DNA from: a virus
Length of the DNA: 51,875 bases
Virus record (IMG/VR): IMGVR_UViG_3300038420_000034
Direction: 5' to 3' (one strand)
Shown: positions 32,743 through 37,151 of the stretch, piece after piece
Layout of the letters: each line of letters starts with the position of its first letter
Numbering within the stretch: the first letter of the stretch is position 1
Program-made: the position numbers and the translations under genes
Notes under the pieces: model-generated
The model's input: only the letters and a program-made list of their open reading frames with translations
Databases searched by the model: none
What the model was told of the DNA's origin: nothing

Positions 32743-32904
32743 TCATCGGATCAGGGAGATGACCGGGGTCACCAGCCCTGGGGTCACCAGGAACATGTTT
32801 GGGTAGCCCATGGCGATCTCCAAGACGCCAGTGATGCCCAGCCGTTCAAGCGCCCCGACCGTTCTCGGGCCGTTCACGAGGGCCTGGATTAGTTTTGCAA
32901 TCAT
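32743..32904 (-). CDS. possible small hydrophobic protein (53 aa), not in ORF track
   Basis: MIAKLIQALVNGPRTVGALERLGITGVLEIAMGYPNMFLVTPGLVTPVISLIR. Its start sits inside the repeat-rich divergent promoter. Confidence 0.25.
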   Translation of the reverse strand: MIAKLIQALVNGPRTVGALERLGITGVLEIAMGYPNMFLVTPGLVTPVISLIR

Positions 32905-33024
32905 GGCAGAATATACGGCGCAGAACTAGTTTTGTAAACAAGAGTTTTTGAGCCCCACACCACGCCACGGTGTAAACAAGTGTTCTGCAGCCACACGGGC
33001 AAAGATGCCCGGTGTTAACACCAA
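32885..33024. promoter_or_regulatory. divergent control region with direct repeats and a 12-bp perfect palindrome
   Basis: TAGTTTTG(C/T)AA at 32889 and 32927. TGTAAACAAG at 32933 and 32971. GGTGTTAACACC perfect palindrome at 33011..33022, 9 nt before the MVP-like start. Confidence 0.35.
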
Positions 33025-33030
33025 GAAATT

Positions 33031-35840: not shown

Positions 35841-36019
35841 GCCGAGAGCAAAAACTCGAGATGGCCTACCGCCTGGCATTGACCTACCTCTCTGAGACGT
35901 GGACCCACAGCGAGTGCATCCGGTGGTGCAGTGACATGTCACTGCTGGTCCCAGAAGGAAAGATAGACCAGTCTAAGGCCAACCTGATCAAGGCCATCAA
36001 GGAGGCGCTCAAGCCATGA
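35837..36019 (+). CDS. small protein (60 aa)
   Basis: ATGA-coupled on both sides between the 59-aa ORF and the PurA-like gene. Confidence 0.5.
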   Translation: MSREQKLEMAYRLALTYLSETWTHSECIRWCSDMSLLVPEGKIDQSKANLIKAIKEALKP

Positions 36020-37056
36020 GCCACATCATCTCCGAGCATTGGGACCGTGAACTTGCCAGCCATGCTAAGTGGCCCCACGGTGACCATCGCATGAACCACA
36101 TCGTGGTCTATGGTGGGCAGTATGGAAGTGAAGGCAAGGCCTCAGCCGCCGAGTATTGGGCCAAGCGGCTGAAGGCTGAAAACCCACGCAAGGTGCTCTT
36201 TGTCATGGGTGAGAATGGGCCAAACTCCGGACACACCAGCTCTAAGGGGGTCACCAAGAACATCCCAGCCTCCAGCTTCTGGGCCGACTACGTCCTCATG
36301 GGCCCAGACACGGTCGTCGACCCAGAGGCCCTGAACAAGGACTGGAAGGCCGTCAACCGGCCCATCTTCATCCACGAGCACGCGGCCCTGCTCAGCCTGG
36401 CCATGAAGGCAGAGGAGGCCGACCTCGTCAAGCGCATCTCCTCCACCGGGTCAGGGACCGGCGCCGCCCGCGCGTGGAAGTTCTTCCAGCGCCAGCGAAG
36501 CGCCGTCGTGCAGGACGGGCACCTCTACACCCTCAATGACATCAGCGTCGTTGACGACAAGGAATACTTTGACATCGTTCGCCTGGCCGCCTCTGAGATG
36601 GCCATCTTCGAGTGCTCACAGGGGCTGTTGCTTGACACAAACTTTGGGCTGTTCCCATTCGTCACGTCACGCTCCACGCTGCCAAGGGTGGCGGTTGAGC
36701 GCAACGGCCTTGGTGGGCTTCCCTGGAGCTACGTAGGCGTCTACCGCACGTATCCCATAAGGACGGGCGGCCCATCTGGCCCGACCGCCGGTGGCGAGGT
36801 GACCTGGCAAAGCCTTGGGCAGCCCCCGGAGATCACCACGGTCACCAAGCGAGTCAGGCGGGTCTTCAACTTCTCAACGGCCGAGTTTGCAAAAAGCATG
36901 ACGCTGGCCAGGCCTGACGGGCTCATGTTCACCTTCCTCGACTACATCGGCCTGGACCCGAACAACGTGCGGGATCTCTACGAGTTCATCGAGTGGACCA
37001 GGTATCAAAACATCGCCATCTTGGTCTTGTCCGCGTTGTTGGTGACCTCAACATAG
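36016..37056 (+). CDS. adenylosuccinate synthetase family enzyme, short form (346 aa); PurZ candidate
   Basis: Collinear PurA motifs: P-loop GGQYGSEGKAS (PurA GTQWGDEGKGK). GPNSGHT (GHNAGHT). STGSGTGAA (TTGRGIGPA). FECSQGLLLDTNFGLFPFVTSRST ([24 protein letters not shown]). TTVTKRVRR (GATTGRRRR). Lacks the bacterial C-terminal extension. Confidence 0.75.
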   Translation: MSHIISEHWDRELASHAKWPHGDHRMNHIVVYGGQYGSEGKASAAEYWAKRLKAENPRKVLFVMGENGPNSGHTSSKGVTKNIPASSFWADYVLMGPDTVVDPEALNKDWKAVNRPIFIHEHAALLSLAMKAEEADLVKRISSTGSGTGAARAWKFFQRQRSAVVQDGHLYTLNDISVVDDKEYFDIVRLAASEMAIFECSQGLLLDTNFGLFPFVTSRSTLPRVAVERNGLGGLPWSYVGVYRTYPIRTGGPSGPTAGGEVTWQSLGQPPEITTVTKRVRRVFNFSTAEFAKSMTLARPDGLMFTFLDYIGLDPNNVRDLYEFIEWTRYQNIAILVLSALLVTST

Positions 37057-37151
37057 CACGCGACAATGCTGTCCTCCTTGTGGTCTGTCAGATATTCCCA
37101 GATGCAGAAGGTCGAGTCAAGCCCACCGGACCATAGGACCCCGACCTTCAT
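37002..37151 (-). pseudogene. N-terminal remnant of a PP-loop ATPase (QueC/ExsB-like), 49 codons
   Basis: MKVGVLWSGGLDSTFCIWEYLTDHKEDSIVACYVEV... = SGGxDS PP-loop at the position seen in QueC. Frame terminates after 49 codons inside the antisense of the PurA-like gene. Confidence 0.35.

Follow-up and report, generated by a model that had tools for sequence, protein, structure and literature searches.

Does the adjacency of a vault-protein gene and a purZ-like gene in a phage genome signify a joint function? The question is raised by the IMG/VR virus record IMGVR_UViG_3300038420_000034, a complete JGI contig of 51,875 bp that is analysed here at its full length (the window) and that belongs to a larger genome. 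The ORF listing yields four plus-strand open reading frames (ORFs), encoding in order a homologue of MVP, the major vault protein (ORF 1), two small proteins and a homologue of the PurZ family (ORF 4), whose members make 2-aminoadenine (Z) for DNA. All other gene-sized ORFs tile the minus strand almost without gaps when placed by a greedy procedure, which leaves the block as the sole rightward unit, and independent gene calls on a Logan assembly of the same DNA give the same strand picture. The layout described in a first-pass annotation, made from the sequence alone, is thereby confirmed. That annotation had also proposed that the block is a mobile moron linking a protein compartment to purine or DNA-base metabolism.

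The evidence assembled below leads us to a different reading, namely that the block is probably a lineage-specific, deletion-prone patch of accessory genes in a large tailed phage and not a conserved module. Relatives of the window phage lie on contigs of 100-230 kb, one of which encodes a T4-type Gp23 capsid protein. The four ORFs would be transcribed rightward from the 126-bp intergenic region that precedes them, and MVP and PurZ would act independently of each other.

Distribution of MVP and PurZ in other loci

The first line of evidence comes from two collections of loci: 85 MVP loci with 10 kb on either side, the IMG/VR part of which comprises the best 80 of 159 MVP matches, and 97 PurZ-family loci with 8-10 kb on either side, drawn from the matches listed. 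A single-protein PurZ query against IMG/VR returned nothing, an alignment query being needed to find the PurZ loci, and the metagenome scan supplied mostly distant (~30% identical) relatives. No PurZ relative is found near MVP at any of the 85 MVP loci, and among the matches listed, neither an MVP (0/97) nor a protein with the SGGxDS (PP-loop) motif (0/97) is found near PurZ. In the neighbourhoods of the closest MVP relatives (L002, 64% identity; L007 and L008, 62%; L009 and L010, 55%), MVP is co-directional with unrelated neighbours, and purZ and the small ORFs are absent, as are MVP and the small ORFs from the loci with the closest PurZ relatives (L006 and L011, 67% identity; L005, 63%). MVP and purZ are thus distributed independently among other phages. 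The functional pairing of vault protein and PurZ is not borne out by these counts, and the small ORFs are without a homologue in any of the loci. Judged from sequence comparison, the adjacency of the two genes is unique to the window among the loci examined and would not in itself constitute evidence of joint function. A DNA-level search of GenBank phages with the block also gave no match.

Also significant is the observation that phage MVPs have recurrent neighbours of their own. A protein of ~510 amino acids (aa) that combines DUF2828 with DUF7788 and carries a MIDAS-like VDTSGSM motif is encoded near MVP in 19 of the 85 loci (7 non-redundant), mostly just upstream of the MVP gene at a median distance of 481 nt (for example L003:6669-8204; further loci include L009, L010, L059, L076, L080, L083 and L089). 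A ~270-aa family without a Pfam match occurs near MVP in 21 of the 85, and metallophosphoesterases, cREC_REC domains and an RNA-ligase-like protein are likewise recurrent. These neighbourhoods look like those of RNA repair or NAD-related conflict, and the genes they contain could tell more about the function of phage MVPs than the window does. The DUF2828/DUF7788 proteins were considered as relatives of Ro60/TROVE proteins and this was rejected, as no sequence or profile match was obtained in the PDB. A Metallophos_2 phosphoesterase is also encoded in the window itself (28227-28796, minus strand), and 10 other MVP loci have a relative of it no more than 10 kb from MVP.

Table 1. Coordinates of the block, its junction and the deletions found in variant contigs (window numbering).
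Feature	Position	Strand	Extent	Remarks
Divergent intergenic region	32905-33030		126 bp	Presumed promoter/operator of the rightward block
MVP homologue (ORF 1)	33031-35664	+	877 aa	Pfam, sequence match to rat/human MVP, Foldseek
Orphan acidic protein	35661-35840	+	59 aa	pI 4.05; ATGA overlap with MVP stop
Orphan protein	35837-36019	+	60 aa	pI 7.8; strong GGAGAGGAGGA ribosome-binding site; ATGA overlap
PurZ-family (N6-succino-2-amino-2'-deoxyadenylate synthase-like) gene (ORF 4)	36016-37056	+	346 aa	Conserved protein from Met26 (36091)
QueC-like PP-loop ATPase, N-terminal remnant	37005-37151	-	48 codons	45 homologous, 3 foreign
Tail-to-tail recombination junction	37014-37017			purZ homology stops at or before 37014, QueC-like homology at or after 37017
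MVP deletion (D3)	33231-35540		2310 bp, in frame	Between 9-bp direct repeats CGGGGCCAT (33222-33230, 35532-35540); L104, L105
purZ deletion (D2)	36463-36520		~58 bp	Frameshift after SSTGSGTG; L104, L105
Deletion right of block (D1)	37314-38293		980 bp	7 of 10 variant contigs; flanking ORFs fused into a 115-aa ORF
Further deletion	27206-27960		757 bp	L104, L105
Further deletion	29664-31905		~2244 bp	L104, L105

Deletion variants of the same phage

A lookup of the 48-aa ORF at the right end of the block retrieved ten further contigs with 95-100% identity to the window, most blocks being at least 99.7% identical. Two of these contigs, L104 (from ENA) and L105 (from JGI), each carry five deletions relative to the window (Table 1). 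Deletion D3 reduces MVP to a 107-aa remnant, an allele found on 6 contigs versus 1-2 for the intact gene, although such allele counts on short contigs are biased by assembly. Microhomology of 1-2 bp is found at the 757-, ~2244- and 980-bp deletions. Contig L107 has deletion D1 but an uninterrupted purZ at the D2 site; the deletions are accordingly independent events. Unaltered in the variant contigs are the 59-aa ORF (an identical copy of which is found on 10 contigs), the 60-aa ORF and the PP-loop remnant.

The region is therefore prone to microhomology-mediated deletion. Presence or absence of the whole block in related genomes had been put forward as a check on its mobility, and the answer here was an unexpected one: the near-identical variants retain the borders of the block, whereas MVP and purZ are interrupted by deletions within them. 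The loss of both genes in natural variants suggests that both would be dispensable to the phage.

The purZ/PP-loop junction

The third line of evidence concerns the right border of the block, where purZ runs antisense into the N-terminal remnant of a PP-loop ATPase gene, as the first-pass annotation had noticed; the overlap with the 3' end of purZ amounts to 52 nt, and the remnant is itself ATGA-coupled to an upstream 50-aa gene. The remnant carries the motif WSGGLDST as well as the family-invariant residues N38, N39 and K42, and is matched by phrog_1550 (QueC-like, 2.7e-6) and by Pfam PP-loop families, the matches being weak but consistent. A word-indexed homologue search with the 48-aa ORF returned the query alone, and the full-length relatives were found when 1.8 billion representatives were searched exhaustively with HMMER. 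These relatives (~180-290 aa) are 50-60% identical to the remnant over its residues 2-46, always at their own N-termini (E ~4e-7). Beyond Met45, at which point a conserved Glu is found in the family, the similarity is lost, and the relatives continue with the motifs GYVMNDDAIS, FPL.K and CGxCxPC. Among five relatives scanned, the Pfam QueC family is matched at E <= 3e-4 in three and at E 1.7e-3 in one, with no match in the fifth.

On the purZ side, the protein follows its own clade as far as '...EWTRYQNI', which ends at position 37014, and the conserved C-terminal 'VSNxTGxF' is absent, the last ~20-28 residues being replaced by 13 unrelated codons that represent the antisense PP-loop sequence. 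A frameshift as the cause of this C-terminus can be ruled out, as the conserved tail is encoded in no other frame. An extension of purZ homology up to the stop codon, for which a weak in-register resemblance (ALLVTST versus PVMVSNT) might be cited, was rejected because the same bases carry statistically supported PP-loop homology. Since both homologies end within the same interval (Table 1), one illegitimate recombination would have truncated both genes, removing ~20-28 codons from purZ and ~80% of the QueC-like gene. Apart from the abruptness of the junction, nothing speaks for an assembly chimera, an explanation whose probability we consider negligible: the junction is identical in 12 contigs that come from different samples and were assembled independently (JGI, ENA and Logan), and it is therefore not an assembly artefact.

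The origin of the junction is illuminated by the best full-length QueC-like relative, P0244 (247 aa; L194:7974-8717), which lies on a 230-kb contig (IMGVR_UViG_3300032770_000002) that also carries the closest purZ (L006/L090, 67%). The gene for P0244 is found ~2 kb downstream of a DUF4419 homologue, and follows homologues of the window genes at 51389, 44320 and 39145 (the last being DUF4419, 40% identity) with the window order kept. This conserved order supports the view that the QueC-like PP-loop gene would be a resident of this neighbourhood. In the 230-kb relative, 46 kb separate purZ from the QueC-like gene and both lie on one strand, whereas the two are convergent in the window; on account of this distance and the opposite relative orientation, the purZ-bearing segment would have moved next to the QueC-like gene and would not always have been there. 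The 230-kb contig is not among the best 80 of 159 IMG/VR MVP matches, and is accordingly without a close MVP homologue. As a separate observation, the 230-kb phage, with both a QueC-like gene and purZ, may combine two DNA-modification pathways.

A simpler course of events, in which purZ and the QueC-like gene were already convergent and a deletion removed both 3' ends together with the DNA between them, without insertion or translocation, would be in keeping with the deletions of 58-2310 bp at microhomologies of 1-9 bp that this lineage makes in the region. It would account for both truncations by one event and for the absence of the remainder of the QueC-like gene from the left border, and the lone purZ of L006 and L011 is also convergent and overlapping with its downstream neighbour. 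We nevertheless regard it as doubtful, as the sole relative with both genes has them 46 kb apart on the same strand, an arrangement that a deletion cannot render convergent, and no PP-loop gene is found near any PurZ-family locus among the matches listed.

The proposal that the block was inserted into a resident minus-strand gene and truncated it can be upheld in part: a resident PP-loop gene is indeed truncated at the right border. The event was not the insertion of a clean cassette, however, because purZ is truncated too, the left border lacks the distal QueC-like sequence, and no repeat of at least 9 nt is common to the two borders. In fact, no shared border k-mers of at least 9 nt, no target-site duplication and no inverted repeats are detected at the borders of the block, and no integrase, transposase or homing-endonuclease domain is detected in the 32-38 kb region. 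A mobile moron or cassette, lacking flanking repeats and an adjacent mobility gene, is thus not substantiated. An in-situ inversion was also considered and rejected; it would have placed the distal PP-loop part on the plus strand at the left border, a position taken by the intergenic region and the start of MVP.

Accessory patch or functional module

A functional module may be envisaged in which a vault-like shell serves to concentrate or protect the synthesis of Z nucleotides, or to sequester purine nucleotides, with the small proteins as adaptors. The four ORFs are tightly packed in the sole rightward unit, and the GC content at third codon positions (GC3) is high in both large genes (MVP 0.87, the maximum of the window; purZ 0.81), compared with 0.67 +/- 0.08 for other genes. 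Furthermore, MVP and purZ are inactivated together in L104 and L105, and the vertebrate MVP has a nucleotide-binding pocket at its shoulder (bioRxiv 10.64898/2026.05.01.722283). Set against these points are the lack of co-occurrence in all 85 MVP and 97 PurZ-family loci, the small ORFs that have no homologue anywhere searched, the independence of the deletions (L107 having D1 and an intact D2 site), the loss of three unrelated segments from L104 and L105 as well, and the nature of the usual MVP neighbours, which are DUF2828/DUF7788, cREC, phosphoesterase and RNA-ligase genes and not purine enzymes. Such a module is, in our judgement, very unlikely. Equally little credence is given to the more specific notion of a phage vault-like shell tied to Z synthesis, which would enclose PurZ or sequester purine deoxynucleotides, the two orphan small proteins again being adaptors, and whose coupling would be reflected in the joint loss from variants; we consider it highly improbable.

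A lineage-specific patch of accessory genes is therefore the reading that we retain, and there are four points that weigh against it. The high GC3 of both genes within one tight unit makes a joint acquisition of MVP and purZ conceivable. The breakage of both genes in the same contigs (L104 and L105) might point to a functional link instead of general erosion. The direction of the proposed rearrangement is taken from a single distant relative. Finally, no DatZ, MazZ, DutZ, DUF5664 or Z-tolerant (DpoZ-type) polymerase is encoded among the window ORFs, an absence that is uninformative in a contig that is a fragment. As regards base composition, the MVP and purZ homologues of other phages likewise have a GC content somewhat above that of the genomes they lie in, and the elevated GC3 may be taken as a weak sign of recent acquisition of the two genes.

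The major vault protein homologue

The assignment of ORF 1 as an MVP, proposed from the translation alone, is borne out by profile, sequence and structural comparisons. The MVP_shoulder family (PF11978) is matched over aa 560-660 with an E-value of 9e-19 (68 bits versus a cut-off of 25) and Vault_3 with 1.6e-9, and aa 488-784 align with rat and human MVP in a sequence search (5e-11), the identity to animal MVP being ~17%. An AlphaFold model built on 27 homologues (mean confidence, as pLDDT, of 67) shows beta-rich N-terminal repeats, an alpha/beta SPFH-like shoulder and a C-terminal tail of low confidence, together with a single predicted cap helix of 137 residues (aa 661-797, pLDDT about 70-90); residues 221-270, 316-346 and 416-476 are further stretches of low confidence. 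In a Foldseek search of the PDB with this model, the top 12 matches are all MVP chains (5e-25 to 1e-19, full length), followed by a fragment of murine MVP comprising R1-R7 (1e-8) and by SPFH proteins. ORF 1 is thus, on the strength of sequence and model, an intact MVP homologue with the full vault-protein architecture, which would probably form a large homo-oligomeric shell or ring via its shoulder and its predicted cap helix.

The family to which it belongs is extensive, with over 2,600 homologues of ~820-860 aa in bacteria, candidate-phyla-radiation (CPR) bacteria and phages, and at least 159 IMG/VR viral contigs with MVP, mostly 50-470 kb in length. The nearest metagenomic relatives of ORF 1 are 54-64% identical. 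One of the close relatives, L008, has genes for Gp23 and for a T4-type prohead protease as well, and a PTP-SAK ('Swiss Army Knife') phosphatase of the window (50398-50922, minus strand) is 52% identical to those of the MVP-bearing L007 and L008. Phage MVPs have already been reported in silico (Santos et al., bioRxiv 10.1101/2023.11.10.566534), and no experimental work on them was found in the literature searched. No Pfam family of TROVE (TEP1-like) or PARP proteins is present among the 70 window ORFs scanned, and the PADLOC defence-system models match neither MVP nor PurZ. In the closest IMG/VR MVP (L002:10001-12489, 64%), the gene is split into two overlapping frames near 11104-11149, which may reflect a frameshift or a sequencing error.

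The PurZ-family gene

ORF 4 had been described as a PurA/PurZ-like enzyme, and the comparisons place it on the PurZ side. It matches PhiVC8 PurZ (6TNH) at 2e-30 (109 bits) and S-2L PurZ at 1.6e-16, as against ~1e-12 for archaeal and Escherichia coli PurA (50 bits for the latter). The NCBIfam PurZ model (NF038379) scores 142 bits, versus 81 bits for the best PurA model, a score that lies under the curated cut-off of 300 bits; phrog_1211 is matched at 1.9e-42. The start of the gene is ambiguous. The ATG at 36016 is preceded by an AAGGAGG Shine-Dalgarno sequence 10 nt upstream, while Met26 (36091) corresponds to the start in all homologues, in the PhiVC8 PurZ crystal construct and in the 321-aa call of JGI (P0001).

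In an alignment with PhiVC8 PurZ from GenBank (window residues numbered from Met26, P0001), Ser13 occupies the diagnostic position of PhiVC8 S14, which is Asp in PurA, within GSEGK here and GSTGK in PhiVC8. Y11 is found at the position of F12, a Tyr for Phe replacement, and T249 at that of T262. Other residues of PhiVC8 that are kept are W252 (W239 in the window protein), G256 (G243), P233 (P222), F295 (F282) and Y298 (Y285). In PhiVC8, F12, S14 and T262 accommodate the 2-amino group, and F295 and Y298 are at the ATP site (bioRxiv 10.1101/2025.10.22.683976). If its altered C-terminus is tolerated, the window PurZ would condense dGMP with aspartate, the first step to dZTP.

That the C-terminally altered PurZ is already inactive, and that the block lies in a decaying region with MVP and purZ being lost and no current function, is an alternative that must be weighed here. 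It would agree with the missing VSNxTGxF motif of the clade, with the occurrence, in other samples, of purZ alleles with a frameshift and MVP alleles with an internal deletion (the 107-aa one on 6 contigs versus 1-2 for the intact gene) and with the split frames of the closest IMG/VR MVP. On the other hand, the reading frames of MVP (877 aa) and of PurZ (308 conserved residues) are intact in the window, every PurZ residue of described function that was examined shows the PurZ state (with Tyr for F12), GC3 is high, and the counts on short contigs are subject to the assembly bias mentioned above. Decay on this scale we judge unlikely, the preferred reading being that of a patch of accessory genes that is prone to deletion.

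All 203 GenBank phage matches to the window PurZ belong to known PurZ-bearing groups, with identities of at most 33%, so that its clade is without a cultured member. In the loci of its closest relatives L006 and L011, purZ is a lone opposite-strand gene, flanked by a divergent cpYpsA gene on one side and by a convergent gene that overlaps it on the other. The cpYpsA (SLOG-family) gene lies 3-24 nt from the start of purZ (L006:9464-9976; L011:2453-2989) and is absent from the window; it is a possible conserved partner of purZ. Somewhat more distant PurZ relatives, ~48% identical to that of the window, occur on contigs of ~3-29 kb (L114 and L117-L121, e.g. L118:1760-6812), where a set of genes recurs: a 117-aa ORF and a dUTPase-like gene come after purZ, and DUF4406 (NDT-like) and protein-primed PolB genes lie close by. 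By analogy, these neighbours resemble the PurZ0/Wayne-type Z toolkit (PMC12884076).

Small ORFs, gene coupling and the leftward flank

The two small ORFs have no significant family match in Pfam, PHROGs, NCBIfam or PADLOC, and no homologue in GenBank phages or in ~270 fetched loci. They had been described as two tiny acidic proteins, which is correct for the first and does not apply to the second (isoelectric points, pI, in Table 1). The successive ATGA start/stop overlaps, at 35661, 35837 and 36016, are present as stated, but the third is perhaps not at the real start of purZ, given that the homologues and the JGI call begin at 36091. Overlaps of 4 nt are found in 27 of the 75 adjacent same-strand gene pairs of the window (36%) and are thus ordinary in this contig, so that the ATGA coupling in the block is not special and the obligatory co-translation of the four ORFs that had been deduced from it is not borne out.

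The divergent region upstream of MVP, which the first-pass annotation had given as 460 bp, is in truth a gap of 126 bp, the remainder being occupied by two minus-strand ORFs (59 and 53 aa, ATGA-coupled), of which the 53-aa one is called by the gene callers. The 59-aa ORF (32567-32746, minus strand), ATGA-coupled at both ends and with a zinc-ribbon-like Cys pattern (CCKSP...CPCG), is uncalled by them and is probably a real small gene. Of the direct repeats and the perfect palindrome reported for this region, the repeats are present as two copies of the 14-nt motif TGTAAACAAGWGTT (32933-32946 and 32971-32984, 38 nt apart), whereas the palindrome is merely 8 nt in length (AACTAGTT, 32924-31). The motif is found nowhere else in the 51.9-kb window, and two or more matches anywhere in the window were obtained in 5 of 100 shuffles; the pair is a candidate operator or promoter element upstream of MVP. 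A sigma-70-like site in the intergenic region points leftward, and neither a sigma-70-like plus-strand promoter for the block nor a plus-strand terminator-like site within it was found. No Rfam family is matched in the 30-40 kb region, and no tRNA gene is found in the window.

Comparison with known systems

Phage MVPs and PurZ have each been described already, and what the window would add is a PurZ of an uncultured clade and a typical phage MVP. With the phage and bacterial MVPs known so far (bioRxiv 10.1101/2023.11.10.566534; bioRxiv 10.1101/872010; PMC3762200), ORF 1 shares a length of ~820-880 aa, the succession of vault repeat, shoulder and long coiled coil, encoding by a tailed phage and the lack of a TEP1 or PARP4 partner. 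It differs in its T4-like large-phage background, in adjoining purZ and in having no DUF2828/DUF7788 neighbour of the kind found at a part of the other phage MVPs (19 of 85 loci). Compared with the eukaryotic vault, which consists of MVP, TEP1, PARP4 and vault RNA, the shell protein of the window, known here from gene and model, has the same domain order, whereas no TROVE or PARP protein is found among the scanned window ORFs and no vault or Y RNA family in the 30-40 kb region. The intact MVP and the natural in-frame deletion alleles in near-identical genomes offer a ready comparison for the role of phage MVPs.

The PurZ enzymes of PhiVC8 and S-2L (PDB 6TNH, 7ODX) share with ORF 4 the short archaeal-type adenylosuccinate-synthetase fold and the Ser that replaces the catalytic Asp of PurA; the window PurZ differs in its ~33% identity to them, in its replaced C-terminus and in its occurrence in a large phage as opposed to a ~40-kb podovirus or siphovirus. 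The presence of this clade in large phages, unlike the ~40-kb phages of the Z-DNA studies, would widen the range of PurZ, and the existence of purZ-null variants in nature invites the question whether this lineage can do without Z substitution.

With the QueC-like ATPases of the phage 7-deazaguanine pathway (phrog_1550; PF06508), the remnant shares the N-terminal SGGLDS PP-loop, but it retains 45 of ~180-290 codons, and the loss of the central GYVMNDDAIS and of the C-terminal CGxCxPC zinc motif rules out that it is an active enzyme. The junction that truncated two DNA-modification genes would be a classic example of how illegitimate recombination acts in a plastic part of a phage genome, and cautions against taking adjacency for function. 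Hyperplastic regions and 'morons' of large phages have in common with the block the small orphan genes, the shuffled accessory genes and the presence/absence and deletion polymorphism in near-identical genomes; the block differs from morons in having no terminator of its own, no flanking repeats and no directly adjacent homing endonuclease.

At the far left of the window, five tandem paralogous ORFs of 337-352 aa (2700-7874, minus strand) fall into two subgroups, with identities of 59-68% within and ~40% between them, and the one that was tested matches phrog_9600, a 'tail assembly protein'.

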